From the NCBI GenBank assembly GCA_965602395.1, contig CBFCYW010000006.1, forward strand, positions 5,171 through 69,170: a stretch of DNA of 64,000 bases. Reading direction: 5' to 3'. The notes under the pieces are model-generated. The model made no database searches and had not been told where the DNA came from. It saw only the letters and a list, made by a program, of their open reading frames with translations. The number at the start of each line of letters is the position of its first letter. Within the stretch, counting starts at the first letter, position 1. Shown piece after piece: positions 2,766 through 63,969 of this stretch. Source of the stretch: an uncultured Chromatiales bacterium. GTDB lineage: Bacteria > Pseudomonadota > Gammaproteobacteria > CBFCYW01. Both the position numbers and the translations under genes were made by a program.

Positions 2766-3794
2766 TCAGGCGTGCGGCGCCGGAAACGAGCGATAGTGCA
2801 ACGGGATCCGGCCGAGGCGCCGGTCGCGCGACGGCTGCAGGCCGAAGTGGCGGCGATAGACGCGGGCGAAATACTCCTGAGAGCTGAAACCGCAAGCGGT
2901 CGCCACCACCAGTAGCGGCATCTCGGTCTGGGTCACCAGACTGCGCGCGCGCTCCAGCCTGCTGGCCTGGTAATACTGCACTGCGGTGAGCCCGGTGTGG
3001 CTGCGGAACAGCCGCTCCAGCTGGCGCTGCGAGAGACCCGCGCGGCGGGCGATGGTGGCTACCGGCAGCGGGTTTTCCAGATTGCCCTCCATGCACACGA
3101 TGGCCTCGCGCAGCTTGGGTGGCGCGGCGTAGCCGACCGGCTCGTGATAGCTGGGCCGCTGGCTCTCGCCGCCGCCGCGCAGGCGCTCGTGGAAGATATA
3201 GCGCGCCGCGGCGTTGGCCAGATCGATGCCATCGCGCAGGCGGATCAGCTCCAGCGCCAGATCACCGCTGGCGTTGCCGCCGCAGCAGCTCAGCCGCGTG
3301 CCGTCGATGATGAACAGATCCTCGCAGGCGATCGCATCCGGGAACAGCTCGCGAAAGCTGGCGATGTGCTCGTAGTGCACCGTCGCCCGGCGGCCGGCGA
3401 GCAGCCCGGCGAAGGCGAGCAGAAAGGCGCCATTGTCGATGCCGCCCAGCGCCACGCCGGCGGCCGCGCGACGCTTCAGCCAACCGAGCAGGCGGGGGTC
3501 GCGGTAGTCCTCCGGGGCCCAGCTGGCGCTGACGAACAGCATGTCGATATCATCGCCGCAGCGCTCGAAAGGCTGCGTCTCGCCCAGTTTCATGCCATTG
3601 CTGGCCTGCACTGCGCCGCCCGCCAGCGACAGCAGCTGCCAGTCGTAGCGCGGTCGGTCGCCGAGGTAGTTGGCGGCGCGAAAGGGATCGAGCAGGGCGG
3701 TGGTGGCCATCAGGTTGAAGTTGGGCAACAGCAGCACCGCCATGCGCACGGGTGGTGTGGCGGCACATTCTGCGGAGGGCGGGGCAGTGGACAT
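2766..3794 (-). CDS. GlxA-family (GATase1-like + AraC HTH) transcriptional regulator
   Basis: LDPFRAANYL, ATVHYEH, C-terminal LSQRQLERLF and ACGFSSQEYFARVYRRHFG AraC HTH; divergent from the ABC operon. Confidence 0.92.
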   Translation of the reverse strand: MSTAPPSAECAATPPVRMAVLLLPNFNLMATTALLDPFRAANYLGDRPRYDWQLLSLAGGAVQASNGMKLGETQPFERCGDDIDMLFVSASWAPEDYRDPRLLGWLKRRAAAGVALGGIDNGAFLLAFAGLLAGRRATVHYEHIASFRELFPDAIACEDLFIIDGTRLSCCGGNASGDLALELIRLRDGIDLANAAARYIFHERLRGGGESQRPSYHEPVGYAAPPKLREAIVCMEGNLENPLPVATIARRAGLSQRQLERLFRSHTGLTAVQYYQASRLERARSLVTQTEMPLLVVATACGFSSQEYFARVYRRHFGLQPSRDRRLGRIPLHYRSFPAPHA

Positions 3795-3807
3795 AAGCGC
3801 GGCCGAT

Positions 3808-3839
3808 GGCGTAAAAATCCAGAATGTCGGCGAAATAAT
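3808..3839 (+). promoter_or_regulatory. candidate AraC-type operator (two half-sites, 21-bp period)
   Basis: GGCGTAAAAATCCAGAATGTCGGCGAAATAAT; 24/32 identical to 8938-8969. Confidence 0.55.
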
Positions 3840-3978
3840 ACTGTGCTCGCCAGGTTCGCTGCACTGGCCTGTGAGCGCCATCGCGGTCAGCACGACAGAA
3901 AAACACCCGCGACGCCGGTGGCTGCCGCCGCCGGAACAATCCCGATGACATGCGTCGTCGCACCCCGGAGGAAAGAAA

Positions 3979-4943
3979 ATGAGAACCAAAGGTTTCACTC
4001 TCGCGCCCGCTCTCGCCGCACTCGGCCTGCTCTGCGGCAGTGCCCAGGCCGCCAGCCTGGGTGCGGTCGATGAGCCGATCAAGCTGGCGATCAACGAATG
4101 GACCGGCCAGCACGTCTCCACCCACATCGCCGGGCGCATGCTCGAAGCCGCCGGCTACAAGGTCGAGTACACCACCGCCGGCTACATGAATATGTGGCAG
4201 GCGATCGCCGACGGCGAGATCCACGCCGCGATGGAGGTGTGGGAGTCCAACGTCTCCGACCAGTACGCCAAAATGCGCGACGCCGGCCAGCTGGAAGAAC
4301 TCTCCGATCTCGGTCTGAATGCCCGCGAGGGCATCGCCTACCCGGCCCACGTGGCCGACATCTGCCCGGCCTGCCGGACTGGCAGGCGCTGAAGAAGTGC
4401 GCCGGCCAGTTCGCCACCGCAGAGACCATCCCGCAGGGGCGGCTGGTGGATTACCCGGCCGATTGGGGCACGCCGGGCGCCGATCGGGTCAACGCGCTGG
4501 GCCTGCCGTTCAAAGCCGTGCCGGCCGGCTCCGAGGGCGCGCTGATCACCGAGATCCGCGCCGCGACGGAGAAAAAGAGCCCGCTGCTGATCACTTTCTG
4601 GCAGCCGCACTGGGCGATGTCCGCCTACGACATGCAGTGGGTGGCGCTGCCCGAGGGTGAGCCGGCCTGTTACGACGATGCCAGCTGGGGGCCGAACCCC
4701 AACGCCACCAGCGACTGCGACTTCCTGCCCGCGCGGATCTTCAAAGCCGGCTGGCCGGGGATCCGCGACAAGTGGCCGGCGGCGCATGAAATCCTCGTCA
4801 ACTACAGCCTCTCCACCGAGGCCCAGCAGCCGATGATGGGCGCCGTGGATGTGGACGGCGAAAATGTCGAAGCCGTCGTCTCCGCCTGGATGAGCGCCAA
4901 CGAGGGCAGCTGGAAGCCGGTCGTCGAAGCCGCCACTCAATAG
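3979..4943 (+). pseudogene. glycine betaine/choline-type ABC substrate-binding protein (OpuAC/ProX family), 1-nt frameshift near 4368-4370
   Basis: Signal peptide and EWTGQ...EVWE in ORF 3979-4392 continue as LPDWQALKKC...FWQPHW in ORF 4098-4943; TGC CCG GC CTG lacks one G of CCG GGC; may be a sequencing error. Confidence 0.8.
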
Positions 4944-4946
4944 CCG

Positions 4947-6020
4947 ATGGCCACGCAAGACCCGCGAGCGCCCGCGGCGATCTCCTGCAGCGGCGTCTGG
5001 CAGGTGTTCGGCGGCGATGCCCGGGCCGCACTGGCCCGGGCGCTGCAGGACTGCGCTGGCGATGCCCGCGCCGCCGCCGCACAGCTGCGCGAATCCGGCC
5101 TGACGGCAGCGGTGCAGGATGCCAGCTTCGAGGTCGCCGAGGGCGAGCTGTTCGTCATCATGGGCCTGTCCGGCTCCGGCAAATCGACGCTGGTGCGCTG
5201 TATCTCCAACCTGTTGCACGCCACCGGCGGCGAGATCCGCATCGCCGGCGAAAACATCGTCGCAGCCAGCAAGCAGCGGCTGATCGAGCTGCGCCGCGAA
5301 AAGCTCGGCATGGTCTTTCAGCACTTCGGCCTGTTTCCGCACATGACCGTGGCGGAGAACGTCGCCTTCCCGCTCAAGGTCAAGGGCTCGGGCAGGGCCG
5401 AGCGCCAGCGGCGGGCGCTGGAAGTGATCGAACTGGTCGGCCTGGCCGGCCGTGAAAACGCCTATCCGCGCGAGCTGTCCGGCGGCCAGCGCCAGCGCGT
5501 CGGCATCGCCCGCAGCCTGGCGGTGAACCCGGACATCTGGTTCCTCGACGAGCCCTTCTCGGCGCTGGACCCGCTGATCCGCCGCCAGCTGCAGGACGAA
5601 TTCCTCAACATTCAGGCCAACCTGAAAAAATCCATCGTCTTCATCACCCACGACATCACCGAGGCACTGAAGCTGGCGGATCGCATCGCCATCATGCGCG
5701 ACGGCGAAATCGTGCAGATCGGCACCCCGGCGGAGATCGTGCTCGCGCCGGTGGATGACTACGTGCGCGAATTCTCCAAGGATGTCGCCAAGGGCCGTCA
5801 CGCCTGTGTCGAATCGGTGATGCAGCGCGATCACAGCCCCCCGGTGCAGATGCCCGACGACCCCGGCGTGCGCGCCGACATGACGCTGGATGCGGCGCTG
5901 GCCGCCTGCATGTCGCTGTACCAGCCGGTGCCGGTGCGCGATGCCAGTGGCCGCCAGGTGGGCTATGTGCGCCCGCAGGACCTGGCCGCCGCCCTCAACA
6001 GCGATGATGATCAGCCATGA
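4947..6020 (+). CDS. betaine/proline-type ABC transporter ATP-binding protein (ProV/OpuAA family)
   Basis: GLSGSGKS Walker A, LSGGQRQRVGIAR, DEPFSALDPLIRR. Confidence 0.93.
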   Translation: MATQDPRAPAAISCSGVWQVFGGDARAALARALQDCAGDARAAAAQLRESGLTAAVQDASFEVAEGELFVIMGLSGSGKSTLVRCISNLLHATGGEIRIAGENIVAASKQRLIELRREKLGMVFQHFGLFPHMTVAENVAFPLKVKGSGRAERQRRALEVIELVGLAGRENAYPRELSGGQRQRVGIARSLAVNPDIWFLDEPFSALDPLIRRQLQDEFLNIQANLKKSIVFITHDITEALKLADRIAIMRDGEIVQIGTPAEIVLAPVDDYVREFSKDVAKGRHACVESVMQRDHSPPVQMPDDPGVRADMTLDAALAACMSLYQPVPVRDASGRQVGYVRPQDLAAALNSDDDQP

Positions 6021-8068
6021 GCACGAGCGACTGGTGGGCTGATCGCAGCGCCGGAGTGCGCGCCGCGCTGCTGGTGTCGCTGACCGGCGCGCTGTGTCTG
6101 CTGCTGGAATCCTCGCTGCCCTGGCTGGTGAGCTGGCCGCAGGCCTGGACGCTGCCGGCGGCGCAGTGGATCGGCGACGGCCTCGGCTGGCTGCTGGGCG
6201 GGCTGAAGCCGCTGGCGCGATTTTTCTCCGAGCTGCTGGCCCACCCCATGGACTGGGCCAACGCGCTGCTCAACGCCACCCCCTGGCCGCTGCTGATCGG
6301 CCTGACCACGGCGCTGGGCTGGTACCTCGGCGGTATCGGCATGGCGACGATGGCGCTGCTCGGGCTGGGCTTCGTGCTCGCCTCCGGCTACTGGACGCAG
6401 GGCATGAATACCCTCGCGCTGGTGGCGGTATCGGTGCCGCTGGCGCTGCTCAGCGGCCTGCTGATCGGCATCCTCGCCAATGAGTTCCCACGCTTCAAAA
6501 GCCCGGTGCAGACCCTGCTCGACGTGATGCAGACGGTGCCCACCTTTGCCTATCTGACCCCGCTGCTGCTGCTGTTTGGCTTCGGCCCGGTGGTCGGGCT
6601 GATCGCCTCGGCGATCTACGCCGCGCCACCCATGGCGCGCAATGTGCTCCTCGGCCTGGAGCGGGTCGACAGCGAAGTCCGCGAGGCGGCGCTGATGAGC
6701 GGCGCCAATCGCCTCCAGCAGCTGTTTCTGGTGGAGCTGCCGGCGGCGGCCACGCAGATCATGGTGGGTGTCAACCAATGCCTGATGGCAGCGCTGTCGA
6801 TGGTGATCATCGCGGCGGTGATCGGCGGCTTCAACGACATCGGCTGGGAGGTGTTGCTGACCATGCGCAAGGCGCAGTTCGGCCAGAGCCTGATGGCCGG
6901 GCTGGTGATCGTGGTCTTCGCCGTGCTCATCGACCGCATGAGCGGCGCCCTGGCCAGCGAGCGCCGGCGCCACGATCTGCGCGTCGTCTGGGGCCTGCTC
7001 GGGTTTACCGCGCTGGCCACGCTGCTGAGCTGGAACGGGCTGCCGGATGCCGCCGAGCTGCGCCTGCTGGACGGCGCCGCAGCCGCGGTGGATGCCGGTC
7101 TCGGTAAATTCACCGCCGATTACGGCGCGGCGCTGGACAGCCTCAAGAACGGGGTGATGTTCTACGCCCTGCTGCCGCTGCGCATCGGGCTGGATCAGTC
7201 CGTGCTGCCCTTCACCTGGGGCTTTCAGTGGACCGCGGCGATGAGCTACGGCCTGTTCGCCGCCGCCGCCGCCATCGCCGTGCTGCTGGCCTGGCGCGGC
7301 GCGGCGCTGGCCGGGCTGCTGCTGCTGATCGCCGTCGGGGTGATCGAAACCGGCGTCGCCGAACTGCCCTGGCCCTTCGTGCTGGCGGCGGTGGTGGCGC
7401 TGGGCCGGGTGGCCGGCGGCTGGCGATTGGCGATCTTCGCCCTGCTGATGCTCGCCAGCCTGTTGCTCGCCGGGCTGTGGGAGCGGGCGCTGCTGTCGCT
7501 GTACCTGTGCAGCGCGGCGGTGCTGGCCTGCGCCCTGTGCGGCGGCGCGCTGGGCCTGCTCTGCGCGCTCAACCCGCTGGCCTGGCGGCTGCTGCGGCCG
7601 GTTTGCGACATGCTGCAAACCATCCCGCTGTTCGTGTTTCTGATCCCGGTGCTGATGTTTTTCCAGATCGGCGAGTTCTCCGCCTTTCTGGCGATCTGCG
7701 CCTACGCCATCGTGCCGATGATCCGCTACACCCGGCACGGACTGGTGAGCACCCCGCCCGAGCTGATCGAGGCCGCGGTCTGCTCCGGCGCCACCGAGTG
7801 GCAGATCATGCGCGAGGTGCGCGCCCCCTACGCTGCGCCGACCATCCTGCTGGGCCTCAACCAGACCATTCTCTATGCCTTCGCGATGCTGGTGATCGCC
7901 GCGCTGATCGGCACCACCGGGCTGGGCCAGTCGATCTATCTGGCGCTGGGTCAGGCGGATATCGGCCTGGGCATCACCGCCGGCGCCGCGATGGCGATTC
8001 TCGCCCTGGTGGCGGATCGGCTGGTGCAGGGCTTCGCTCGGGAGCGTCGCCAGGCACTGGGTCTGTAG
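6017..8068 (+). CDS. betaine-type ABC transporter permease with two fused ProW-like domains
   Basis: Two copies of the ProW motif set (LDVMQTVPTFAYL / CDMLQTIPLFVFL; EAALMSGAN / EAAVCSGAT; GVNQ / GLNQ). Confidence 0.9.
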   Translation: MSTSDWWADRSAGVRAALLVSLTGALCLLLESSLPWLVSWPQAWTLPAAQWIGDGLGWLLGGLKPLARFFSELLAHPMDWANALLNATPWPLLIGLTTALGWYLGGIGMATMALLGLGFVLASGYWTQGMNTLALVAVSVPLALLSGLLIGILANEFPRFKSPVQTLLDVMQTVPTFAYLTPLLLLFGFGPVVGLIASAIYAAPPMARNVLLGLERVDSEVREAALMSGANRLQQLFLVELPAAATQIMVGVNQCLMAALSMVIIAAVIGGFNDIGWEVLLTMRKAQFGQSLMAGLVIVVFAVLIDRMSGALASERRRHDLRVVWGLLGFTALATLLSWNGLPDAAELRLLDGAAAAVDAGLGKFTADYGAALDSLKNGVMFYALLPLRIGLDQSVLPFTWGFQWTAAMSYGLFAAAAAIAVLLAWRGAALAGLLLLIAVGVIETGVAELPWPFVLAAVVALGRVAGGWRLAIFALLMLASLLLAGLWERALLSLYLCSAAVLACALCGGALGLLCALNPLAWRLLRPVCDMLQTIPLFVFLIPVLMFFQIGEFSAFLAICAYAIVPMIRYTRHGLVSTPPELIEAAVCSGATEWQIMREVRAPYAAPTILLGLNQTILYAFAMLVIAALIGTTGLGQSIYLALGQADIGLGITAGAAMAILALVADRLVQGFARERRQALGL

Positions 8069-8079
8069 CGGGCTCGCGG

Positions 8080-8946
8080 GTGCGCCCCGAGGCACTGGCG
8101 CTGATCGCCGCGATCCTCTGGGGTATCTGGTGGATACCCATCCGCCATCTGGAATCCCTCGGCGCGCACAGCGTGTGGGGTGGCATCGCCATGAGCGCCG
8201 GCGGGCTCGCGGCCGTCGGCCTGTGGCTGCTGCTGCGCCGCGGCTCGCTGCGCATCGACTGGCGCAGCCTGCTGGGCGCGGCGCTGGTGGGGGTCGCGGT
8301 GACCACCTATTCCACCGCCCTCAATCACGCCGACGTGGTGCGGGTGATCCTGCTGTTCTACCTGGCGCCGGCCTGGGGCAAGCTGATCGAGTGGGCGCTG
8401 CTGGGCCATCGCTGGGGCTGGTCGAGCAGCCTGGCGCTGGCCGCCGCGCTCGGCGGCGCGCTGCTGGTGCTCGGCGGCGAGGTCTCGCTGCAGGCGCTGG
8501 GAGTGGGCGATGTGCTGGCGATCCTGTCCGGCATGGCCTGGGCCGCCGGGGCGGCGCTGATGTTCATCGGCGGCGGCGCCAGCCCGGCCGCGCTGACCCT
8601 GGCCACCTGTGCCAGCGGCGTGCTCACCGGGCTGCTCTACGCGGCGCTGGCGGGGGTCGCCATCGCCGCCGATCCGATGCCCATCGCCGCCGCCGGGCTG
8701 GCCTACGGCGGGCTGTACCTGGTGCCCATCTGCATGCTCACCCTGTGGAGTGCGCAGCGCCTGTCGCCGGCCACCATCAGTTTTATCCTCACCGCGGAGA
8801 TCATCTCCGGGGTGCTCTCCGGGGTGCTGCTGCTGGATGAACCCTTCGGTCCGATGCAGGCCGCCGGCGCGCTGCTGATCGTGCTCGGGGCGAGTATCGA
8901 GATGATCGCCGCGCGAGGGATTTCGCCGCAAGCATCCGGCGAATAA
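8080..8946 (+). CDS. DMT/EamA-family transporter
   Basis: About 10 hydrophobic segments, LLFYLAPAW; GTG start 11 nt after permease stop. Confidence 0.85.
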   Translation: MRPEALALIAAILWGIWWIPIRHLESLGAHSVWGGIAMSAGGLAAVGLWLLLRRGSLRIDWRSLLGAALVGVAVTTYSTALNHADVVRVILLFYLAPAWGKLIEWALLGHRWGWSSSLALAAALGGALLVLGGEVSLQALGVGDVLAILSGMAWAAGAALMFIGGGASPAALTLATCASGVLTGLLYAALAGVAIAADPMPIAAAGLAYGGLYLVPICMLTLWSAQRLSPATISFILTAEIISGVLSGVLLLDEPFGPMQAAGALLIVLGASIEMIAARGISPQASGE

Positions 8947-8969
8947 GTACAGAATCTCGACGAAAAAGT
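8938..8969 (+). promoter_or_regulatory. candidate AraC-type operator upstream of the sulfatase operon
   Basis: GGCGAATAAGTACAGAATCTCGACGAAAAAGT, same motif as 3808-3839; -10-like TAGTCT at 8995-9000. Confidence 0.55.
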
Positions 8970-9044
8970 GACGAATTCCCCCAATCCACTGGACTAGTCT
9001 GGCTCCACGACGGCCGTTTGCCGCCATCCTCCAGAGCCAGGCTA

Positions 9045-10583: not shown

Positions 10584-10595
10584 CGGAGGCTACCG

Positions 10596-11738
10596 ATGCA
10601 ACAGCTACCCACCGAGCAGGACATCCGCCAGATCGGCCGCGGCTTCGATCCCGATCCGGCCAGATCCTCATCCATCGATACCCGTTGCTATGTCGATCCG
10701 GGCTTTCTGCAGCTGGAACGCGAGCAGGTGTTCTGGCGCAGCTGGCAGTTCGTCTGCCACGCCGAGGCATTGCGCGAAGCGGGCAGCTATGTGACGGCGG
10801 ATGTGCAGGGCCGCAGCATCGCCGCGCTGCGCGGCCACGATGGCCAGCTGCGCGCCTTTTACAACGTCTGCAAACACCGCGGCCACGAGCTGCTCTCCGG
10901 CAGCGGCAAGACGCGCATGATCACCTGCCCCTACCACGCCTGGACCTACCAGGCCGACGGCCAGCTGCGCGCCGCCCGCGGCAGCGAGAAGATCGTCGGT
11001 TTCGATCGCCAAGCCTGCAGGCTCGACGCGGTGCAGATCGAAGAATTCTGCAGCCTGATCTTCGTCAATCTCGATCCGCAGGCCGCGCCGCTGGCGGAGC
11101 AGAGCGGCAGCCTGGCGGATGAGCTCAACAGCTACGCACCGGATCTGTCCCGGCTGACCTTCGCCCACCGCCTGACCTACACCATCAAGGCCAACTGGAA
11201 GTCGGTGGTCGATAACTTTCTCGAGTGCTACCACTGCGACGTCGCCCACAAGGATTTCGTCACTCTGGTGGACATGGACAGCTACAAGGTGCAAACCCAC
11301 GGCATCTGGTCCAGCCACATGGCTCGCGCCGGGCTCACCGAAAACAAGGCCTATTCGGTCGAAAACGCCACCGTCACCGACCACGCGGTGTGGTTCCTGT
11401 GGCCCAACACCACGCTGATGCGCTACCCCGGCCGGGGCAATTTCATGGTCTGGAAATTCATCCCGCTGGGGCCGGAGGAAACCTACGAGGAGTTCGACAT
11501 CTTCCTCGAGGACGACACCCCCAACGAGGCCGAGCGCGAAGCGCTGCGCTTCATCGACGAAGTGCTGCAACCCGAGGACATCGGTCTGGTGGAAAGCGTG
11601 CAGCGCGGCATGAACACCCCGGCCTTCAACTCGGGTCGCTACATGGTCGATCCGCAAGGCTCGGGCCAGAGCGAGCACGCGGTGCACCACTTCCACGGCC
11701 TGATTCTGGACGCCTACCGGCGCGCGTGCGAGTCGTGA
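10596..11738 (+). CDS. Rieske non-heme iron oxygenase, CntA/YeaW (carnitine monooxygenase)-like alpha subunit
   Basis: Rieske CKH...CPYH; NWKxVVDNFLECYHCxxAH iron motif; PEDIGLVESVQRG; GSGQSEHAVHHFH C-terminus. Confidence 0.88.
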   Translation: MQQLPTEQDIRQIGRGFDPDPARSSSIDTRCYVDPGFLQLEREQVFWRSWQFVCHAEALREAGSYVTADVQGRSIAALRGHDGQLRAFYNVCKHRGHELLSGSGKTRMITCPYHAWTYQADGQLRAARGSEKIVGFDRQACRLDAVQIEEFCSLIFVNLDPQAAPLAEQSGSLADELNSYAPDLSRLTFAHRLTYTIKANWKSVVDNFLECYHCDVAHKDFVTLVDMDSYKVQTHGIWSSHMARAGLTENKAYSVENATVTDHAVWFLWPNTTLMRYPGRGNFMVWKFIPLGPEETYEEFDIFLEDDTPNEAEREALRFIDEVLQPEDIGLVESVQRGMNTPAFNSGRYMVDPQGSGQSEHAVHHFHGLILDAYRRACES

Positions 11739-12490
11739 GCGGGGCTCTCGACGGGCGGGTCGCGGTGGTCACCGGCGGCTGTGGCGGCATCGGTCAGGCG
11801 ATCTGCAAGCGCTTCGCCGCCGAGGGCGCGACGGTCTACGCGGCGGACATCGCCGAGGCCGAGCTGCCCGCGGGCGTCGCCTACGCCCGCCACGACGTCA
11901 CCAGTGAAGACAGCGCCAGCGAGCTGATGGCGCGGGTCGAGCGCGAGCAGGGCCAGCTGCACGTGCTGGTCAACGCGGCCGGCATCGAGATCGAAAAGAC
12001 CATCGAGGAAACCAGCCTCGACGAGTGGAACCGGATCTTCGCCATCAACGTCAGCGGCACCTTCCTGACCTCAAAAAAGGCGCTGCCGCTGATGCGCCTG
12101 GCCGGCAGCGGCTCGATCGTCAACTTCGGCTCCTACGACGGCTTCATCGCCGACCCCGGGCTGGCCGCCTACTGCGCCACCAAGGGCGCGGTGCACGCGC
12201 TGACCCGCGCCATGGCCTGCGATTGCGGGCCGGACAATATCCGCGTCAACGCCATCTGCCCCGGCTACATCGACACACCGATGCTGCAGAGCTTCTTCGG
12301 CTCCTCCGGCGACATCGAAAGCCTGAAGAGCGAGGTGCGCCGGGTGCACCCCATCGGCCGCTACGGCACGCCCGAAGACGTGGCCAACCTGGTCAACTGG
12401 CTGGCCGGCGACGAGGCGCGCTACGCCTCCGGCCAGCTGTGGGTGCTGGACGGCGGGCTGACCGCACAAGTGCAACAAATGCGTGTCTGA
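11735..12490 (+). CDS. short-chain dehydrogenase/reductase
   Basis: TGGCGGIG, VNAAG, YCATK (YxxxK); GTGA overlap with the oxygenase stop. Confidence 0.92.
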   Translation: MSGALDGRVAVVTGGCGGIGQAICKRFAAEGATVYAADIAEAELPAGVAYARHDVTSEDSASELMARVEREQGQLHVLVNAAGIEIEKTIEETSLDEWNRIFAINVSGTFLTSKKALPLMRLAGSGSIVNFGSYDGFIADPGLAAYCATKGAVHALTRAMACDCGPDNIRVNAICPGYIDTPMLQSFFGSSGDIESLKSEVRRVHPIGRYGTPEDVANLVNWLAGDEARYASGQLWVLDGGLTAQVQQMRV

Positions 12491-12503
12491 GGGAGGTTCA
12501 AGC

Positions 12504-13433
12504 ATGTCCAAACCGATCATTATCAGCTGCGCCGTCACCGGCGGCATCCACACACCGAGCATGTCGCCGCACCTGCCGATCACCCCGGCGCAGATCGCCG
12601 AGCAATCCATCGGCGCGGCCGAGGCCGGCGCCTCGATCATCCATCTGCACGCCCGCGATCCGCTAGACGGCCGGCCGACGCCGGACCCGGAGGTATTCAT
12701 GCAATTCCTGCCGGTGATCAAATCCGGCTGCGATGCGGTGGTCAACATCTCCACCGGCGGCGGGCTGGGCATGAGCCTGGAGCAACGCCTCGCCGCGGCG
12801 ATGCGCGCGGCGCCGGAGATGGCCTCGCTGAACATGGGTTCGCTGAACTTCGGCATCTTCCCGATGAAGGACAAATACCAGGATTGGCAGCACGATTGGG
12901 AGCCGGCCTTTCTGGAGATGACCCGCGACTTCATCTTCCGCAACACCTTCGCCGACATCGAGCACGTGCTGATGACCCTCGGCGAAGAGCACGGCACGCG
13001 CTTTGAGATGGAGTGCTACGACCTCGGCCACCTGTACAACGTGGCGCACTTCGTCGATCGCGGGCTGATCAAGCCGCCGTTCTTCATTCAGATGATCTTC
13101 GGCATTCTCGGCGGCGTCGGCGCCGATCTGGACAATCTCACCCACATGCACCGGGTCGCCGAGCGGCTGTTCGGCGACGACTTCGAATGGTCGGTGCTGG
13201 CCGCCGGCAAACACCAGATGAAGTTCGCCACCACCGCCGCGCTGCTCGGTGGCAACCTGCGCGTCGGACTGGAGGACAGCCTGTATCTGGGCGCCGGCCA
13301 GCTGGCGCAGAGCAATGCCCAGCAGGTGGCCAGGATCCGCCGCATCGTCGAGGACCTGTCGCTGCAGATCGCCACACCGGCCGAAGCGCGCCAGCGGCTG
13401 GGACTCAAGGGCGGCGATCAGGTCGCCTTTTGA
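12504..13433 (+). CDS. beta-keto acid cleavage enzyme (BKACE/DUF849)
   Basis: IISCAVTGGIHTP, IHLHARDP (HxH metal ligands), LRVGLEDS. Confidence 0.92.
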   Translation: MSKPIIISCAVTGGIHTPSMSPHLPITPAQIAEQSIGAAEAGASIIHLHARDPLDGRPTPDPEVFMQFLPVIKSGCDAVVNISTGGGLGMSLEQRLAAAMRAAPEMASLNMGSLNFGIFPMKDKYQDWQHDWEPAFLEMTRDFIFRNTFADIEHVLMTLGEEHGTRFEMECYDLGHLYNVAHFVDRGLIKPPFFIQMIFGILGGVGADLDNLTHMHRVAERLFGDDFEWSVLAAGKHQMKFATTAALLGGNLRVGLEDSLYLGAGQLAQSNAQQVARIRRIVEDLSLQIATPAEARQRLGLKGGDQVAF

Positions 13434-13457
13434 CACAAACGATTCGGAGGAAAACCC

Positions 13458-14882
13458 ATGCAGCCCACCACCAGACTACTGATCGCCGGCGAGCTGGTCG
13501 CAGGCGCCGGCGAAGCCGTGCCGGTGCTCGACCCCTGCAGCGGGCAAAGCATCTGCAGCGTCGCCGAGGCCAGCGCCGAGCAGGTCGATGCCGCGGTGCG
13601 CGCGGCGAGCGAGGCCTTCCCCGCCTACGCCGCGACCACCCCCGGCGAGCGCGCCGCGCTGATGCTGGCGCTGGCCGACCGACTGGAGGCCGATCTCGAC
13701 AGCTTCGCCGCGCTGGAATCGCTGGATACCGGCAAGCCGCTGGCCGCGGCGGCGGAGGAGGTCGGCGCCTGCGTCGATCTGTTCCGCTTCATGGCCGGCG
13801 CCTGCCGCTGCCTGAGCGGCCCGGCCGCCGGCGAATACATGGCCGGCTTCACCTCGATGATCCGCCGCGATCCGGTCGGCGTGGTGGCCAGCATCGCGCC
13901 GTGGAACTACCCGCTGATGATGGCCGCGTGGAAGATCGCCCCGGCGCTGGCCAGCGGCTGCACGCTGGTGCTCAAGCCCTCCGAGCTGACCCCGCTGTCG
14001 GCGCTCAAGCTCGCCGAGCTGCTCGGCGAGATCTACCCGGCGGGTGTGGTCAGCGTGCTGTCCGGGCGCGGCGCCAGCACCGGCGACCGGCTGATCAATC
14101 ACGACGCGGTGGAATTCATCTCGCTGACCGGCTCGATCCGCACCGCCACGCGGGTGCTGGAAGCGGCCTCGAAAACCATCAAGCACACCCATCTCGAACT
14201 GGGCGGCAAGGCGCCGGTGATCGTCTTCGACGACGCCGATCTGGAAGCGGTGGTCGAGGGCGTGCGCGGCTTTTCCTACTACAACGCCGGGCAGGACTGC
14301 ACCCAGCCCTGCCGCCTGTACGTGGCCGACAAACTCTACGACCGGCTGGTCGCCGATCTCGGCAGCGCCATCGGCTCGATCAACACCGGCCTGCCACAGG
14401 ACGACGACGTGGAGATGGGGCCGATCATCAGCGAGGCCCAATTCCAGCGTGTGCAGGGCATGGTCGATCGCGCCGCCAGCGCCGGCCACATGGAGATCGT
14501 CACCGGCGGCCGCGCCAGCGGCAACGGCTTCTTCTACCAGCCGACGCTGATCGCCAACGCCCAGCAGGGCGACGAGGTGGTGCGCGAGGAAATCTTCGGC
14601 CCGGTGGTCACCGCCAGCCGCTTCAGCGACGTCGATCAGGCGGTCGACTGGGCCAACGACACCCGCTACGGGCTGGCGTCTTCGGTGTGGACCAAAGACA
14701 TCGGCCGGGCGATGGCCACCGTGGCGCGGCTGCGCTACGGCATCACCTGGGTCAACACCCATCTGGTCGGCGTCTCGGAGATGCCCCACGGCGGCATGAA
14801 AAGCTCCGGCTACGGCAAGGATATGTCGATCTTCGCGCTGGAGGACTACAGCGTTCCCCGCCACGTGATGATCGCCCACTGA
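13458..14882 (+). CDS. aldehyde dehydrogenase, aminobutyraldehyde-dehydrogenase (PatD/YdcW)-like
   Basis: [30 protein letters not shown] catalytic Cys, [22 protein letters not shown]. Confidence 0.9.
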
Positions 14883-14892
14883 GGTCGCCGCA

Positions 14893-15657
14893 ATGACTGG
14901 ACAACTAACGGGCAAAACCGCCGTGGTCACCGGCGGCGGCAAGGGTATCGGGCGCGGCATCGTCGAAGCCTTCGCCGCCGCCGGCGCGCAGGTGCTGACC
15001 TGCGGCCGCGCTGCGCAGGCGCAACTGCCGGCCGGCTGCGAATGGCTGCAGGCCGACATCAGCGACAATGCCGGCGTCGACGCACTGGCCGCGCGCGCCG
15101 AGGCGCTGTTCGGCCGGCTCGACATTCTGGTCAACAACGCCGGCGTGCAGGTGGAGAAAACCGTCGTCGACAGCAGCGACGAGGACTGGCGGCAGGTGAT
15201 CGGCGTCAACGCCCGCGGGGTGTTCCTCTGCTGCCGGCGATTTATCCCGCTGATGGCCGCCGGAGGCGGCGGCAGCATCATCAACATCGGCTCGATCAGC
15301 GGCGATCACGCCGATCCACAGATGGCGCTGTACAACGCCTCGAAAGCCTTCGTCCACGGGCTGACGCGATCGATAGCCGTGGATCACGGCGCCGAGGGCA
15401 TTCGCTGCAACGCCATCCGCCCCGGCTGGATCGACACCGGCATGGCCGAAGCGGCCTTCGCACTGGCCGGCCAGCCGCAGGCCGCGCGCCGCGACGCGCT
15501 GGCGCGCCACGCCGTCGGCCGGCTCGGCCAGCCGTCGGATATCGCCGCCGCGGCGCTGTGGCTGGGCAGCGATAGCTCGGCCTTTGTCAGCGGACAGATG
15601 ATCACCATCGACGGCGGATTGATCGCAGCCTCACCGCTGCGGCCCAGCCTGTTCTGA
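14893..15657 (+). CDS. short-chain dehydrogenase/reductase
   Basis: TGGGKGIG, VNNAG, YNASK. Confidence 0.92.
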   Translation: MTGQLTGKTAVVTGGGKGIGRGIVEAFAAAGAQVLTCGRAAQAQLPAGCEWLQADISDNAGVDALAARAEALFGRLDILVNNAGVQVEKTVVDSSDEDWRQVIGVNARGVFLCCRRFIPLMAAGGGGSIINIGSISGDHADPQMALYNASKAFVHGLTRSIAVDHGAEGIRCNAIRPGWIDTGMAEAAFALAGQPQAARRDALARHAVGRLGQPSDIAAAALWLGSDSSAFVSGQMITIDGGLIAASPLRPSLF

Positions 15658-15672
15658 TCTGGAGAACACCCA

Positions 15673-16614
15673 ATGCACAATCAAATCGAAGTCGTCGGCC
15701 TGGTCGGCGGCGGCGTTATCGGCGCCAGCTGGGCGGCACTGTTTCTGGCCGCCGGCCACGAGGTCGATCTGTTCGACCCGGCGGCGCACGCCGAGGCCCA
15801 CGCACGCGACTACATCGAACGGGCCTGGCCTGCGCTGGAGCAGCTCGGGCTGATCCGCCCGGGTGCCAGCGCCGATCGGCTGCGCTGCGTCGGCGACGCC
15901 GCCAGCGCCGTGCGCCGCGCCCAGTTCGTGCAGGAGAGCGTGCCCGAGCGGATGCCCATCAAGCACGAGACCTACCGGCTGATCGAACCGGCACTGGCGC
16001 CGGAGGCGATCGTCGCCAGCAGCTCCTCGGGGCTGCTGATGAGCGAGATGCTGCGCGGCTGGAACAAGCCGGCGCGCTTCATCCTCGGCCACCCCTTCAA
16101 CCCGCCGCACCTGATCCCGCTGGTCGAGCTGCTCGGCACCGAGCACACCGAGGCGGGCGTGCTGGACGCCGCCGCGGCGTTTTACGAGCGCTGCGGCAAG
16201 GTCACCATCCGCGTCAATAAGGAGGTGCCGGCGCACGTCGCCAACCGGCTGCAGGCGGCGCTGTGGCGCGAGGCGGTCAATCTGGTGGTCGAGGGCGTGG
16301 CCAGCGTCGAGGATGTCGACAAGGCGGTCACCGCCGGGCCGGGGCTGCGCTGGTCGGTGATGGGGCCGCACATGCTGTTCAGCCTGGGCAGCGGCGGGCA
16401 GGGCATCGACGGCTTCTGCGAGCGCTACGGCGACAGCTTCCACACCTGGTGGGACAGCCTCGGCGCGCCGCGCCTGAACGCGGAAACCGCCGCCAAACTG
16501 GCCGCGGGCATCACCGTGGAGGAGCGCGGGCGCAGCTTTGAATCGCTGGCCGCCGAACGCGACGCCAAACTGGTGGCGGCGATGCGCGCGCTGGCGGCGC
16601 CGGATCAGCACTGA
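15673..16614 (+). CDS. 3-hydroxyacyl-CoA dehydrogenase family protein (carnitine 3-dehydrogenase / lambda-crystallin-like)
   Basis: GGGVIGASW, QESVPE, SSSSGL, GHPFNPPHLIPLVE, ANRLQAALWRE, GPGLRW. Confidence 0.88.
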   Translation: MHNQIEVVGLVGGGVIGASWAALFLAAGHEVDLFDPAAHAEAHARDYIERAWPALEQLGLIRPGASADRLRCVGDAASAVRRAQFVQESVPERMPIKHETYRLIEPALAPEAIVASSSSGLLMSEMLRGWNKPARFILGHPFNPPHLIPLVELLGTEHTEAGVLDAAAAFYERCGKVTIRVNKEVPAHVANRLQAALWREAVNLVVEGVASVEDVDKAVTAGPGLRWSVMGPHMLFSLGSGGQGIDGFCERYGDSFHTWWDSLGAPRLNAETAAKLAAGITVEERGRSFESLAAERDAKLVAAMRALAAPDQH

Positions 16615-59334: not shown

Positions 59335-62849
<3,515 letters not shown>

Positions 62850-62856
62850 CTGCTGG

Positions 62857-63969
62857 CTAGAGGCGCATCGGCATCACGACATACTGCGCGTCTTCGGAGC
62901 CGGCCGGGGTGATCAGGCACGAGCTGTTGGCGTCGCGAAAGCTCAGGCTGACCTCGTCGGTGTCCAGGGTGTTGAGCACATCGAGCAGGTAAGCGACGTT
63001 GAAACCGATCTCCAGCGCCTCGCCGGCATAGTCGACGGTCAGCTCGTCCTGCGCCTCCTCCTGCTCAGGGTTGTGGGTCTGGATGCGCAGCTCGCCGTCG
63101 CCCAGCAACAGGCGGATGCCCTTGTACTTTTCGTTGGAGAGAATCGCCGCGCGCGACAGCGCGGCGCGGAATTCCTCGCGCGGCAGTTGCAGCAGCTTGT
63201 CGTTGCCCTTGGGCAGCACGCGATCGTAATCGGGGAACTTGCCGTCGATCAGCTTCGAGTTGAAACGCACACCGGGCAGGCTGACACGCACGTGATTGGC
63301 GCCGAGTTCGACACTGGCAGGCCCCTGCTCATCCGAGAGCACGCGCAGCAGCTCCTGCACGCCTTTGCGCGGGATGATCACCTGGGTTAGCTCGCCCAGC
63401 CCGGCGCCCGGATCGATCTCCAGCGCGGCGTCACTGAGCGCCAGACGATGGCCGTCGGTGGCCACGCAGCGCAGGCGCTGGGCGCCCAGCTCGAAAAGCA
63501 CGCCGTTGAGGTAGTAGCGCACGTCCTGCTGAGCCATCGCGAAACTGGTGCGATTCAGGCTGCGGGCCAGCACCGCGGGGTCGAGATCGAACTTGGCGGC
63601 GATGTCAAAACCGCCGACTTCGGGGAACTCGTCTGCGGGCAGGGTGGCCAGCGAAAAGCGGCTGCGCCCGGCGCGCAGCTGGGCGCGATCTCCCTCGGCA
63701 GAAAATTCGATGCGCGCGCCGTCGGGCAGCGAGCGGCAGATGTCGTGCAGCTTGCGCGCCGGCACGGTGATCGCAGATTGGCCTTCGATATCCAGCGCCA
63801 GTTCGGCGCGCAGTTCGACCTCCAGATCGGTGGCGGTCACCGACAGCCTGCCGGCATGGGCGGTCAGCAGCACGTTGGCCAGCACCGGGAGTGTCTGCCG
63901 GCGCTCTACGGCGCCGAGCACCTTCTGCAGCGGCTTGAGCAGTTCTTCTCGCTGAGCTGTGAATCGCAT
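62857..63969 (-). CDS. dnaN: DNA polymerase III beta sliding clamp
   Basis: ATDLE, QQDVRYYLNG, ATDGHRL, GKFPDY, YVVMPMRL. Confidence 0.98.
   Translation of the reverse strand: MRFTAQREELLKPLQKVLGAVERRQTLPVLANVLLTAHAGRLSVTATDLEVELRAELALDIEGQSAITVPARKLHDICRSLPDGARIEFSAEGDRAQLRAGRSRFSLATLPADEFPEVGGFDIAAKFDLDPAVLARSLNRTSFAMAQQDVRYYLNGVLFELGAQRLRCVATDGHRLALSDAALEIDPGAGLGELTQVIIPRKGVQELLRVLSDEQGPASVELGANHVRVSLPGVRFNSKLIDGKFPDYDRVLPKGNDKLLQLPREEFRAALSRAAILSNEKYKGIRLLLGDGELRIQTHNPEQEEAQDELTVDYAGEALEIGFNVAYLLDVLNTLDTDEVSLSFRDANSSCLITPAGSEDAQYVVMPMRL

Follow-up and report, generated by a model that had tools for sequence, protein, structure and literature searches.

What does the gene cluster at positions 2766–16614 of the window (the whole 64,000-nucleotide stretch of DNA that was analysed) degrade, and does it follow one of the routes described for choline sulfate or carnitine? 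The locus is a genuine cluster, compact and conserved in many bacteria, for the catabolism of a choline- or carnitine-like compound. A GbdR/CdhR-type regulator on the minus strand lies opposite a plus-strand run of a betaine-type ABC importer, a DMT transporter and seven enzymes at 9045–16614. Domain and profile matches confirmed all of the genes named in the initial annotation, on the strands given there. The features are as follows.

2766–3794, minus strand: GbdR/CdhR-like GATase1-AraC (GlxA-type) regulator (Pfam HTH_18, HTH_AraC and DJ-1_PfpI)
3795–3978, no strand: divergent intergenic region of 184 nt, presumed control region from the spacing between the regulator and binding-protein genes
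3979–4943, plus strand: OpuAC-type periplasmic binding protein gene, TmoX-like, frameshifted (Pfam OpuAC on the C-terminal frame)
4947–6020, plus strand: ProV-type ABC ATPase (TIGR01186, 343 bits; cut-off 326.6)
6017–8068, plus strand: ProW-type permease, a fused double of 683 residues (two BPD_transp_1 stretches)
8080–8946, plus strand: EamA/DMT transporter (Pfam EamA, two stretches)
9045–10583, plus strand: choline-sulfatase (BetC) homologue (TIGR03417, 702.7 bits; cut-off 433)
10596–11738, plus strand: group Va Rieske oxygenase, CntA-like, the centre of the module (Pfam Rieske and Ring_hydroxyl_A)
11735–12490, plus strand: SDR1, NAD-type classical short-chain dehydrogenase (Pfam adh_short)
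12504–13433, plus strand: BKACE (Pfam BKACE, 354 bits; NF053538, 518 bits; cut-off 430)
13458–14882, plus strand: PatD/YdcW-like aminoaldehyde dehydrogenase, ALDH (PRK13473, 723 bits; cut-off 615)
14893–15657, plus strand: SDR2, NADP-type classical short-chain dehydrogenase/reductase (Pfam adh_short)
15673–16614, plus strand: 3-hydroxyacid dehydrogenase of the carnitine-dehydrogenase/lambda-crystallin family (Pfam 3HCDH_N and 3HCDH)

In the run that begins with the binding-protein gene and ends with the dehydrogenase gene, the gaps between genes are −4 to 24 nt, with the exception of 98 nt ahead of the sulfatase gene; the GTG start of SDR1 (11735) overlaps the stop of the Rieske gene, and the GTG at 8080 is the sole in-frame start for the DMT gene past the ProW stop. 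A site scan found no terminator-like site on the plus strand within this run, and a gap of 478 nt follows the dehydrogenase gene. The regulator starts at the ATG at 3794 (read from the translation). A consensus scan of the intergenic region returned no sigma-70-like site, and we only infer a promoter there. The binding-protein gene is split over two frames, one base having been lost near 4366–4370; its N-terminus (frame 3979–4392) resembles a signal peptide, and two intact orthologues of 320 and 325 residues (loci L053 and L038) are 52–55% identical to it on either side of the frame switch. Its closest solved structure is 4xz6 (121.6 bits). The fused ProW scores 348 bits against the choline permease model, below the cut-off of 363, and the same fusion is found in Mesorhizobium and Shinella. 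Counterparts of the DMT gene are weak (27–30% identity) and occur in four of 80 loci.

Conservation was counted in the 45 well-flanked members of a set of 80 related loci from Gammaproteobacteria, Alphaproteobacteria and one Chloroflexota MAG. The Rieske gene is adjoined by at least one SDR gene in all 45. An SDR1 orthologue (at least 60% identity) is present in 40 and SDR2 in 35, while BKACE is present in 19, in 17 of them together with the 3HCDH dehydrogenase (both in 17 loci, one alone in two and three, neither in 23; Fisher 2e-7, not corrected for relatedness). The Rieske gene and SDR stand alone in 23 of the 45 loci, and an orthologue of the regulator is placed divergently 5' of the Rieske gene in none of these 23 core-only loci but in 12 of the 22 extended ones. 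The operon also occurs in cultured Pseudomonas, Shinella, Mesorhizobium, Ruegeria and others, in some with a reductase and a thioesterase inside it. The order Rieske–SDR1–BKACE–ALDH–SDR2–dehydrogenase is common to the window, Pseudomonas sp. MPC6, Mesorhizobium amorphae and Shinella zoogloeoides, and recurs in Ruegeria sp. THAF33 with betC inserted 3' of the Rieske gene. The gene arrangement is non-random, since the same neighbours recur in the 80 loci and in cultured strains. Co-conservation had been set beforehand as a test that could refute the initial annotation; the gene set does recur, both as the universal Rieske–SDR pair and as BKACE with the dehydrogenase.

On a separate contig, the window's genome encodes a full canonical carnitine operon, with an L-carnitine dehydrogenase (437 bits; cut-off 414) fused to a thioesterase, its own BKACE and its own regulator. 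It also encodes a BBOX-like GBBH_N+TauD protein and, on another contig, BetA; a profile search found no BetB above the cut-off in this genome. The cluster is therefore not simply one of those routes. The initial annotation rightly found no BetA, CntB or thioesterase in the cluster; BetA and the thioesterase-fused carnitine dehydrogenase lie elsewhere in the genome. Its description of the cluster as non-canonical, fitting no described choline-sulfate or carnitine route, also stands. The dehydrogenase of the cluster has L-carnitine dehydrogenase as its best family, yet scores 264 bits against a cut-off of 414 and is 40% identical to the canonical enzyme of the same genome; the two BKACE proteins belong to different subfamilies (37% identity). 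The cluster resembles the carnitine-to-glycine-betaine route of Pseudomonas aeruginosa (caiX-cdhCAB with cdhR) and of Sinorhizobium meliloti (carnitine dehydrogenase-thioesterase plus BKACE) in its GATase1-AraC regulator (234 bits to NCBIfam GbdR, below the cut-off of 480), which is divergent from the gene of a betaine binding protein, in its pairing of a 3HCDH-family dehydrogenase with BKACE and, in Pseudomonas sp. MPC6, in an in-cluster 4HBT_2 thioesterase; the Rieske oxygenase, two SDRs, ALDH and sulfatase are additional to that route. With betICBA the cluster shares a BetC homologue that scores above the curated cut-off and has the formylglycine motif (CAPSR; 432 bits to the BetC structure 6fny), whereas it has no BetA, BetB or BetI. 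The literature search found no paper assigning a substrate to this Rieske-centred operon.

The oxygenase is most similar to CntA, which is both its nearest solved relative (6y8j; 264 bits) and its nearest characterised homologue, and it shares the group Va Rieske fold of CntAB/YeaWX (Acinetobacter baumannii, E. coli, Klebsiella). All 26 family members examined keep the Rieske and iron ligands, bridging Glu, cation-pi aromatic (Phe208) and group V motifs; the Cys pair and Tyr225 of CntA are kept in the family as well. Nevertheless, identity to CntA/YeaW is 36–38%, the family forms its own clade beside them (SH-aLRT 100), and N270, Y315, F319 and, in most members, Y295 are replaced. The likeness to CntA, the known trimethylamine-forming enzyme, is a resemblance only. 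True cnt operons (composition in part from PMC11353897) have an SSADH-type ALDH and cntB beside cntA, and lack SDR and BKACE. SDRs, BKACE and a GlxA-type regulator accompany the window oxygenase in place of cntB, an SSADH-type ALDH, a D-malate (tartrate) dehydrogenase, a BCCT transporter and a LysR regulator, none of which adjoins it. These comparisons establish how the cluster is built, that it is co-conserved and that it differs from the canonical systems for choline and carnitine and from CntAB.

The reading that we tentatively prefer, at somewhat less than even likelihood, is hydroxylation, dehydrogenation and beta-keto-acid cleavage of a gamma-butyrobetaine-like betaine, with the ALDH and sulfatase as feeder branches. 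The operon would be inducible and would serve the breakdown of a trimethylammonium betaine, with an oxygenase from a new clade of group Va Rieske enzymes at its centre. The betaine would be taken up by the TmoX/ProXVW-like importer (the binding protein being frameshifted in the present assembly). The oxygenase would grip the ammonium head through Phe208 and hydroxylate a chain carbon not adjacent to nitrogen, with CMO-like regiochemistry, for example at C3 of gamma-butyrobetaine or a homologue. NAD-type SDR1 would turn the resulting alcohol into a beta-keto acid, and BKACE would transfer the carboxymethyl end to acetyl-CoA, yielding acetoacetate and a shorter betainyl-CoA. The natural L-3-hydroxy isomer could enter at the same keto acid through the 3HCDH enzyme. 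This reading is favoured by the invariable Rieske–SDR adjacency, the co-occurrence of BKACE and dehydrogenase and the shared gene order, by the kept ligands and cation-pi aromatic in a clade apart from CntA/YeaW, by the reductase genes inside the operon of other hosts, and by the neighbour of the oxygenase being an alcohol rather than an aldehyde dehydrogenase. The best family of the dehydrogenase and the GbdR/CdhR-like regulator point to carnitine-like chemistry, as do DMGDH-like genes, which adjoin the module directly in three loci (L066, L075 and L032) and lie nearby in three more, and a 4HBT_2 thioesterase inside the MPC6 cluster. The latter shares 38% identity (E 4e-35) with the thioesterase domain of the fused carnitine dehydrogenase in the window's genome, a domain that hydrolyses betainyl-CoA in S. 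meliloti according to a secondary citation in PMC12482172. Such an enzyme would hydrolyse the betainyl-CoA in MPC6 and L002; in the window's genome it would be encoded elsewhere or missing. In-cluster thioesterases are rare (one of 80 loci, L002, at 33% identity; one of five plasmids, that of MPC6), which counts against the preferred reading, as does the redundancy of a second route from gamma-butyrobetaine to glycine betaine beside the BBOX-like protein and carnitine operon. The true substrate may therefore be a homologue.

Cleavage of the C–N bond to trimethylamine is a strong rival, although still on the unlikely side. Hydroxylation by the oxygenase at the carbon that adjoins nitrogen in L-carnitine or a similar betaine would split off trimethylamine and leave a hydroxy-aldehyde acid, for instance malic semialdehyde; NADPH-dependent SDR2 would reduce the aldehyde, NAD-dependent SDR1 or the 3HCDH enzyme would oxidize the 3-hydroxyl, and BKACE would cleave a neutral 4-hydroxy-3-oxo acid to acetoacetate and glycolyl-CoA. 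Group Va holds choline monooxygenase as well as C–N-cleaving enzymes (PMC7948474), which suits the preferred reading; both characterised bacterial members, CntA and OxyBAC, cleave the C–N bond (PMC7948474), and this tells against it. CntA as nearest characterised homologue, the sister position to CntA/YeaW, the retention of Tyr225 and that of Tyr295 in five cultured orthologues also suit a lyase, whereas the pocket replacements do not. The resemblance of the dehydrogenase to lambda-crystallin/L-gulonate 3-dehydrogenase (144 bits to 3f3s) and a paralogous Rieske gene directly 5' of a BKACE gene in another genome (L102) fit this route too. However, true cnt operons use the SSADH-type ALDH on the aldehyde, whereas the ALDH here is PatD-like and rare; reduction followed by re-oxidation, rather than malate formation, is roundabout; the gene families that recur around the module in the 80 loci include none for trimethylamine oxidation; and the MPC6 thioesterase resembles a betainyl-CoA enzyme. 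That an SDR, not an aldehyde dehydrogenase, is always beside the oxygenase argues mildly against C–N cleavage.

BKACE (443 bits to 3e02 and 395 bits to 8rip) counts against our preferred reading and for the lyase route, since tested members of its subfamily accept uncharged beta-keto acids, including hydroxylated ones (PMC11961710); its identity of only 37% to the BKACE of the canonical carnitine operon also speaks against the preferred reading. An SDR and BKACE acting on a polyhydroxy acid also have a precedent in the oxidative deoxyribonate pathway of Pseudomonas simiae, in which an SDR makes a beta-keto acid from a 3-hydroxy acid and BKACE yields acetoacetate and acyl-CoA; its substrate is a sugar acid, and the pathway (bioRxiv 10.1101/205583) includes no oxygenase, betaine transporter or betaine regulator. 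The enzyme would be named a 3,5-dioxohexanoate enzyme by NCBIfam, being above the curated cut-off, and the BKACE15 context has been taken as aromatic degradation (PMC11961710). A neutral or aromatic compound might be the substrate that the oxygenase, SDRs and BKACE break down, through a triacetate-like keto acid, with the betaine transporter and regulator as chance neighbours. This is very improbable given the cation-pi aromatic and group V motifs kept in all 26 family members, and given the recurrence across independent lineages of betaine-type regulators and binding proteins, of the sulfatase and of the aminoaldehyde dehydrogenase.

The sulfatase is present in nine of the 45 loci (12 of all 80) and the ALDH in seven, and the two are associated (both in five, alone in four and two, neither in 34). 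Of the core-only loci, 22 lack the sulfatase and all 23 lack the ALDH. Set against the universal Rieske–SDR pair, these counts place desulfation and aldehyde oxidation outside the core, as add-on branches. With 632 bits to E. coli PatD/YdcW (1wnb), the ALDH is a near-orthologue of that enzyme and unlike the SSADH-type enzyme 3' of true cntA, and so probably acts before any amine loss, not after; the same match favours a cationic C4 intermediate. In the preferred reading it would form the betaine from the corresponding aminoaldehyde, and the sulfatase would hydrolyse the sulfate ester of an amino alcohol, at least that of choline. The initial annotation had instead proposed a single linear route from an O-sulfated, hydroxylated onium osmolyte: desulfation, C–N cleavage, aldehyde oxidation, SDR steps, C3 oxidation and keto-acid cleavage. 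All seven enzymes do form one tight operon in the window, in four of the 45 loci (L002, L051, L053 and L057) and in Ruegeria sp. THAF33, and the sulfatase gene directly adjoins the Rieske gene, 5' or 3', in the window, in six of the sulfatase-bearing loci (L002, L009, L021, L036, L053 and L055), in THAF33 and in Alisedimentitalea. The optional sulfatase and ALDH count against such a route, however, and the type of ALDH, which points to a cationic aldehyde, speaks against its placement after amine release; moreover, we know of no natural compound of this kind. We consider the linear route highly unlikely, and the earlier interpretation overall is partly supported.

It is also improbable, if less so, that the locus is a mosaic of separate small modules that each convert a quaternary amine to glycine betaine under one GbdR-type regulator, with sulfatase, a CMO-like Rieske enzyme or SDR, and ALDH serving choline sulfate and choline, and dehydrogenase and BKACE serving carnitine. 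The sulfatase score, its association with the ALDH, the lack of a BetB above the cut-off, a GMC oxidoreductase beside the L002 cluster and a choline monooxygenase label on six of 120 listed oxygenase family members (from one source) suit such a mosaic. Against it, BetA is above the cut-off in six of six genomes (the window's and all five core-only genomes tested), so that the Rieske–SDR core is no substitute for BetA; the canonical carnitine operon is present separately; and the core so often stands without sulfatase or ALDH.

An Asp after strand beta2 of an SDR marks the NAD type and an Arg the NADP type. The Asp is found in 58 of 65 SDR1 orthologues and the Arg in 57 of 57 SDR2 orthologues, which fits the earlier guess of an SDR redox pair. 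This split suits the one oxidation and one reduction of the lyase route, and SDR2 has no clear place in the preferred reading; its role may be keto or aldehyde reduction or hydroxyl inversion. TsaMBCD likewise couples a Rieske monooxygenase to two successive enzymes that regenerate NADH, an SDR alcohol dehydrogenase and then an aldehyde dehydrogenase (PMC10579966), although that oxygenase belongs to another Rieske group, the substrate is aromatic and there is no BKACE step. The electron donor of the oxygenase would be host-specific: in-operon reductase genes are of the PDR/VanB type in Pseudomonas sp. MPC6 and of the Pyr_redox_2 plus Reductase_C type in Shinella and Mesorhizobium.

Glycine betaine, choline, carnitine and related quaternary amines serve as major currencies of carbon and nitrogen, both in the sea and in symbioses between animals and microbes, and the trimethylamine formed from them is relevant to climate-active gases and, in the gut, to cardiovascular risk. 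The window has a GC content of 65-72%, and the stretch at 2766-16614 holds thirteen genes, laid out as follows.

2766-3794, minus strand: regulator with GATase1/DJ-1 and AraC architecture (GbdR model 234 bits, cut-off 480)
3979-4943, plus strand: OpuAC-type binding protein gene, starting 184 nt from the regulator
4947-6020, plus strand: ProV
6017-8068, plus strand: fused double ProW permease
8080-8946, plus strand: EamA/DMT protein, followed by a 98-nt gap
9045-10583, plus strand: choline-sulfatase homologue (TIGR03417 702.7 bits, cut-off 433)
10596-11738, plus strand: CntA-like Rieske oxygenase
11735-12490, plus strand: short-chain dehydrogenase SDR1
12504-13433, plus strand: BKACE
13458-14882, plus strand: PatD-like aldehyde dehydrogenase (ALDH)
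14893-15657, plus strand: short-chain dehydrogenase SDR2
15673-16614, plus strand: 3HCDH-family dehydrogenase

The seven enzyme genes are separated by gaps of 5-24 nt, with the end of the Rieske gene (11738) overlapping the start of SDR1 (11735), and no terminator-like site was seen on the plus strand within the gene run. A 478-nt gap lies 3' of the 3HCDH dehydrogenase gene; the SnoaL and GGT genes beyond it accompany the cluster in 0/80 related loci (tblastn, best 80 of 335). The binding-protein gene is broken across two frames. Intact orthologues of 320 residues (locus L053) and 325 residues (locus L038), which are 52-55% identical to that of the window, match one frame until '...ICP' and the next frame from 'PGLPDW...', pointing to a single-base loss at around 4366-4370. 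The gene may have been inactivated recently, or the frameshift may have arisen as an error of assembly in a G/C run. The remainder of the window is housekeeping in character (hslVU, ubiE, dapF, lysA, and gyrB-recF-dnaN at 59-64 kb), which places the cluster on the chromosome and fairly near replication-origin genes; the three last-named genes occupy 59335-63969 of the minus strand, at the window end and about 45 kb from the cluster.

To assess the conservation of the gene set, an alignment of 21 members of the oxygenase family (the Rieske oxygenase of the window and its orthologues) was searched against one-genome-per-species contigs, yielding 335 related stretches of which the best 80 were kept. 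Nearly all of these 80 are metagenome-assembled genomes (MAGs) labelled Gamma- or Alphaproteobacteria, with one labelled Chloroflexota, and they include sponge symbionts (Candidatus Poriferihabitans, Spongiihabitans), Arenicellales, Puniceispirillales and the Olavius Gamma 3 endosymbiont; the sources of the oxygenase relatives among them are mostly MAGs labelled marine, sponge or gutless-worm symbionts. The window proteins were searched by tblastn in the 80 loci, and counts were limited to the 45 with at least 6 kb downstream and at least 3 kb upstream. Greedy ORF picking in GC-rich loci at times took antisense frames (L101, L102), and tblastn was used there.

At least one cluster-type SDR adjoins the Rieske gene in 45/45 loci: both SDRs are present in 30, SDR1 only in 10 and SDR2 only in 5. 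BKACE and the dehydrogenase occur together in 17 of the 45, BKACE alone in two, the dehydrogenase alone in three and neither in 23, an association with a Fisher probability of 2e-7 when relatedness among loci is ignored. The regulator is found in 12/22 extended loci (those with BKACE or the dehydrogenase) and in 0/23 core-only loci. The sulfatase (9/45) and the ALDH (7/45) co-occur in five loci, and the extended loci hold 8/9 sulfatases and 7/7 ALDHs. These counts define a module with a universal core (Rieske and SDR), a common extension and optional feeders: the common extension is BKACE, the dehydrogenase and the regulator, and the optional feeders are the sulfatase, the ALDH and the ABC importer. 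When every ORF of the 80 loci was clustered without bias, no further general partner gene emerged, and the lineage-limited neighbours were GNAT (9), carbonic anhydrase (7), DMGDH-like (6), a PALP enzyme (6) and class II aldolase (6). The initial annotation had read the cluster as one linear route, with C-N cleavage, for an O-sulfated, hydroxylated onium osmolyte. The gene set is indeed co-conserved elsewhere, and the full seven-enzyme set occurs in L002, L051, L053 and L057; the sulfated-substrate route itself is, in our judgement, very unlikely.

The oxygenase scores 264 bits against CntA (6y8j) and far lower against Stc2 or GbcA. When 26 members of the family are aligned with CntA, YeaW and two Rieske paralogues, residues C92, H94, C111, H114, E210, H213, H218 and D328 (the Rieske CxH...CxxH motif, the 2-His-1-carboxylate and the bridging Glu) are present in 26/26 members. 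The position of CntA Tyr203, the cation-pi residue, is occupied by Phe208 and is Phe in all 26. An aromatic residue at 203 for the cation-pi contact is described as a signature of group Va, and CntA Y203F is active (PMC7948474). The residues of CntA described as contacting carnitine are Tyr225, Asn270, Tyr295, Phe258, Tyr315 and Phe319 (PMC7948474). Tyr225 is invariant in the family/CntA alignment, as is the Cys pair. The Tyr295 position is Phe in 21/26 members and Tyr in the five cultured orthologues, the Tyr315 position is Ile or Leu, the Phe319 position is Leu, Phe258 falls within an indel, and the counterpart of Asn270 is alignment-dependent, being Met275 with MAFFT or Arg276 with phmmer, and is given no weight here. 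As a whole, the carnitine-contacting set is therefore unmatched in the family, with Tyr225 kept.

A quick maximum-likelihood tree of 24 rows, in which every second one of 20 other family sequences was taken and 10 were omitted, places the family and its cultured orthologues in one clade (SH-aLRT 100) and CntA/YeaW in a separate clade (SH-aLRT 100), the two being joined at 95 along with a long-branched paralogue. The family is 36-38% identical to CntA/YeaW and 57-73% identical internally, with the near neighbour P0002 at 87-88%. The gene neighbourhoods also differ. In the true cnt operons of A. baumannii and Klebsiella, cntA has cntB and an SSADH-type ALDH as neighbours, and a tartrate/D-malate dehydrogenase, a BCCT transporter and a LysR regulator complete the set, a layout that agrees with the pathway described in PMC11353897. 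None of these cnt partners is present within the window, and the constant neighbour of the window family is a classical SDR, unlike the SSADH-type ALDH of cntA. This invariable SDR neighbour suggests that the product of the oxygenase is an alcohol. Group Va contains the C-N-cleaving CntA and OxyBAC as well as the choline monooxygenase of plants, whose site of hydroxylation is one carbon more distant from nitrogen (PMC7948474); with both chemistries in one group, homology alone does not settle the regiochemistry. Some family members are labelled choline monooxygenase by one source.

A tblastn search of a plasmid collection with the oxygenase gave 10 records at 57-59% identity and 20 at 40% or below. 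The first group comprises Alisedimentitalea scapharcae, Rhodobacteraceae M382, Rhizobium sp. CB3171, Roseovarius THAF8 and THAF9, Ruegeria sp. THAF33, two Shinella zoogloeoides, Mesorhizobium amorphae and Pseudomonas sp. MPC6; true cntA and yeaW fall in the second, at 36-38%. Cultured strains carry the operon on plasmids or chromids (Pseudomonas sp. MPC6, S. zoogloeoides, M. amorphae, Ruegeria sp. THAF33, Roseovarius spp. and A. scapharcae), which makes the question of trimethylamine formation directly testable. The annotated operons examined, from five of the 10 records, are arranged as follows.

Pseudomonas sp. MPC6: GlxA regulator, Rieske, SDR, BKACE, aminobutyraldehyde dehydrogenase, SDR, 3HCDH, PDR/VanB oxidoreductase, thioesterase, choline-type binding protein
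Mesorhizobium and Shinella: divergent ABC importer (same fused permease), six enzymes in the order of the window, ferredoxin reductase (Pyr_redox_2 and Reductase_C)
Ruegeria sp. THAF33: GlxA regulator, Rieske, betC, SDR, BKACE, ALDH, SDR, 3HCDH
Alisedimentitalea: Rieske, betC, SDR, SDR, 3HCDH

The presence of a reductase and a thioesterase within operons of cultured hosts indicates that both are part of the system, with a source that differs by host. The reductase and the thioesterase, which the initial annotation noted as missing, are absent from the cluster in the window, as it stated, yet they are members of the system. The genome of the window (3.68 Mb, 231 contigs, rated 100% complete) has PaaE and NqrF as its only proteins combining FNR and 2Fe-2S (Fer2) domains; its NAD_binding_1 matches are these two, a ferric-reductase-like protein and a Fer4-FNR protein. 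No Reductase_C protein was found in the 231 contigs, and the NAD_binding_1 and Reductase_C searches of this genome revealed no dedicated reductase partner for the oxygenase. The MPC6 thioesterase shares 38% identity (E 4e-35) with the thioesterase domain of a carnitine dehydrogenase on C74, another contig of the genome, and L002 has a relative at 33%. The corresponding domain of the S. meliloti carnitine dehydrogenase is cited as hydrolysing betainyl-CoA (PMC12482172). On the Mesorhizobium amorphae plasmid, the operon is followed by an SMR-type small multidrug/quaternary-cation efflux gene (L097:20385-20729) and a second GlxA-type regulator.

The same genome encodes a complete canonical carnitine operon at C74:23-3637 (L088). 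Its 499-residue carnitine dehydrogenase, fused to a 4HBT_2 thioesterase, scores 437 bits with the L-carnitine dehydrogenase model (cut-off 414) and adjoins its own BKACE and a divergent GbdR-like regulator. The window dehydrogenase falls below the cut-offs of both L-carnitine dehydrogenase models (NF005471, 264 bits against 414; NF005716, 231 bits against 592), and is 40% identical to the C74 enzyme; the two BKACEs are 37% identical. A further contig, C75, encodes a GBBH_N and TauD protein, the architecture of gamma-butyrobetaine/trimethyllysine hydroxylases, adjoining an ALDH. At C75:2540-6260 (L103) the ALDH, a flavin reductase and this protein lie side by side, and the trio could be a 2-oxoglutarate-dependent betaine hydroxylation unit. 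BetA is encoded on contig C88 (805 bits, cut-off 732), and no BetB above cut-off was found in the genome. All five chromosome-level genomes with core-only loci have BetA and four have an adjacent canonical dehydrogenase-BKACE pair; none of the five has a cluster-type dehydrogenase, the top match being 46-49%. The idea that the Rieske enzyme is a choline monooxygenase replacing BetA is weakened by the presence of BetA above cut-off in 6/6 genomes tested. The simpler possibility raised in the initial annotation, that the enzymes act on choline sulfate and L-carnitine with the missing partners encoded elsewhere, is not borne out for carnitine. For the sulfatase it is possible, and choline freed from choline sulfate could pass to BetA. 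A mosaic arrangement in which the cluster serves as a hub to glycine betaine seems to us unlikely.

Further clues to the chemistry come from the other enzymes. An Asp follows strand beta2 in 58/65 SDR1 orthologues and an Arg in 57/57 SDR2 orthologues; by the usual SDR coenzyme rule, SDR1 is presumably NAD-type and SDR2 NADP-type, a split that fits one oxidation and one reduction. The ALDH scores 723.5 bits with PRK13473 (cut-off 615), lies below the equivalog TIGR03374 (684, cut-off 909), matches E. coli PatD/YdcW (1wnb) with 632 bits and has the motifs ELGGKAP and GQDCTQ (catalytic Cys and Glu). As a near-orthologue of PatD/YdcW it suggests a cationic C4-type aminoaldehyde, and hence a step before any amine loss. 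The sulfatase, with a Choline_sulf_C domain, a CAPSR formylglycine motif and 432 bits to 6fny, is predicted to be a choline sulfatase of the BetC type by score, motif and C-terminal domain. BKACE scores 517.9 bits with NF053538 (3,5-dioxohexanoate:acetyl-CoA transferase; cut-off 430). A paralogue in a different context on contig C18 also passes this model (513 bits), which shows the model to be blind to context, and no triacetate-producing genes (phloroglucinol or related) were found in the window or among the genes that recur in the neighbourhoods of the 80 loci. The window BKACE shares 70-73% identity with cluster-type BKACEs and 62-68% with many that occur in other contexts, so that the subfamily is functionally mixed. 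It resembles BKACE15 of P. denitrificans (8rip, 395 bits), whose confirmed substrates are uncharged (PMC11961710). Judged by sequence, the BKACE subfamily would speak against a cationic keto acid; a non-onium substrate for the cluster as a whole is the least probable of the readings considered here. The C18 paralogue (C18:1675-7462, L089; 64.6% identical) has as neighbours a class III aminotransferase, a histone-deacetylase-like amidohydrolase and a polyamine-type ABC transporter, and together these genes resemble a further, uncharacterised route for a keto acid.

The largest share of the parts is accommodated by a CoA-independent shortening, similar to beta-oxidation, of an omega-trimethylammonio acid, a reading that we regard as possible but somewhat short of probable. 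The Rieske enzyme would hydroxylate the chain, and the NAD-type SDR1 would oxidize the resulting alcohol, as would the 3HCDH enzyme for the natural L-hydroxy isomer. BKACE would then cleave the keto acid and the thioesterase would free the shorter betaine, with the ALDH and the sulfatase acting as feeders. This reading is weakened by the BKACE subfamily, by apparent redundancy with the BBOX-like gene and the carnitine genes, and by the NADP-type SDR2, which it leaves unexplained; for the same reasons the substrate may be a homologue of gamma-butyrobetaine. Release of trimethylamine through C-N cleavage by the oxygenase would account well for the BKACE type and the NAD/NADP pair, but poorly for the type of ALDH, for the thioesterase and for the lack of a semialdehyde dehydrogenase, and we consider it doubtful. 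A more specific and rather speculative proposal is that the Rieske clade may be an unrecognised 2-oxoglutarate-independent beta-hydroxylase of gamma-butyrobetaine or an omega-betaine homologue. With the NAD-type SDR1 and the NADPH-type SDR2 it would make up a three-gene module for the synthesis or inversion of carnitine-type hydroxy-betaines in marine bacteria, both free-living and symbiotic. In that case, the many marine 'cntA-like' genes that lack a cntB would say nothing about trimethylamine formation.

A survey of marine reference genomes failed to find any organism in which cntA and cntB both have good homologues (PMC9321204). If the clade makes no trimethylamine, gene-based estimates of marine and host-associated trimethylamine sources need revision; if it does, a new downstream route is defined. 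Full-text searching of main texts found no paper that assigns the gene set or its substrate, and the NetSyn preprint on BKACE contexts has no mention of Rieske or sulfatase genes in its main text. Every part belongs to a known enzyme family; the gene set itself is unassigned in the literature found.

Several neighbours occur in subsets of the loci. A GNAT acetyltransferase gene lies directly 5' of and overlaps the Rieske gene in nine loci (L019, L040, L054, L060 and five others); the two form a single fused ORF in L019 (9353-11098), and the GNAT gene is at 9270-9983 in L040, L054 and L060. In Arenicellales, the GNAT-Rieske pair extends an operon that also encodes an RpiR regulator, a flavoprotein of the OYE type, another Rieske oxygenase and a racemase of the enolase superfamily; this operon resembles a set of proline-betaine genes. 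A DMGDH-like gene (DAO and GCV_T, ~810 residues) lies directly 3' of Rieske-SDR on the same strand at L066:12099-14534, L075:12079-14514 and L032:6520-8955, and hints that an N-methylated amine, not trimethylamine, is handed on. In six loci the operon is followed by a gene of the PALP family (fold-type II PLP), ~120 nt from the dehydrogenase gene in L004, L013, L015, L023 and L027 and ~1.2 kb from it in L043; two of these loci are labelled Candidatus Poriferihabitans or Arenicellales and four only Gammaproteobacteria, and all except L043 have an opposite-strand EamA transporter. At L102:4822-7106, in another genome (G003), a paralogous group V Rieske gene (40% identical) is immediately followed by BKACE (65% identical) with no SDR between them, which indicates that Rieske-BKACE coupling recurs. 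Finally, a Thiolinea MAG has a pentameric ligand-gated ion-channel homologue (Neur_chan domains; L001:12937-13980) between BKACE and the ALDH.
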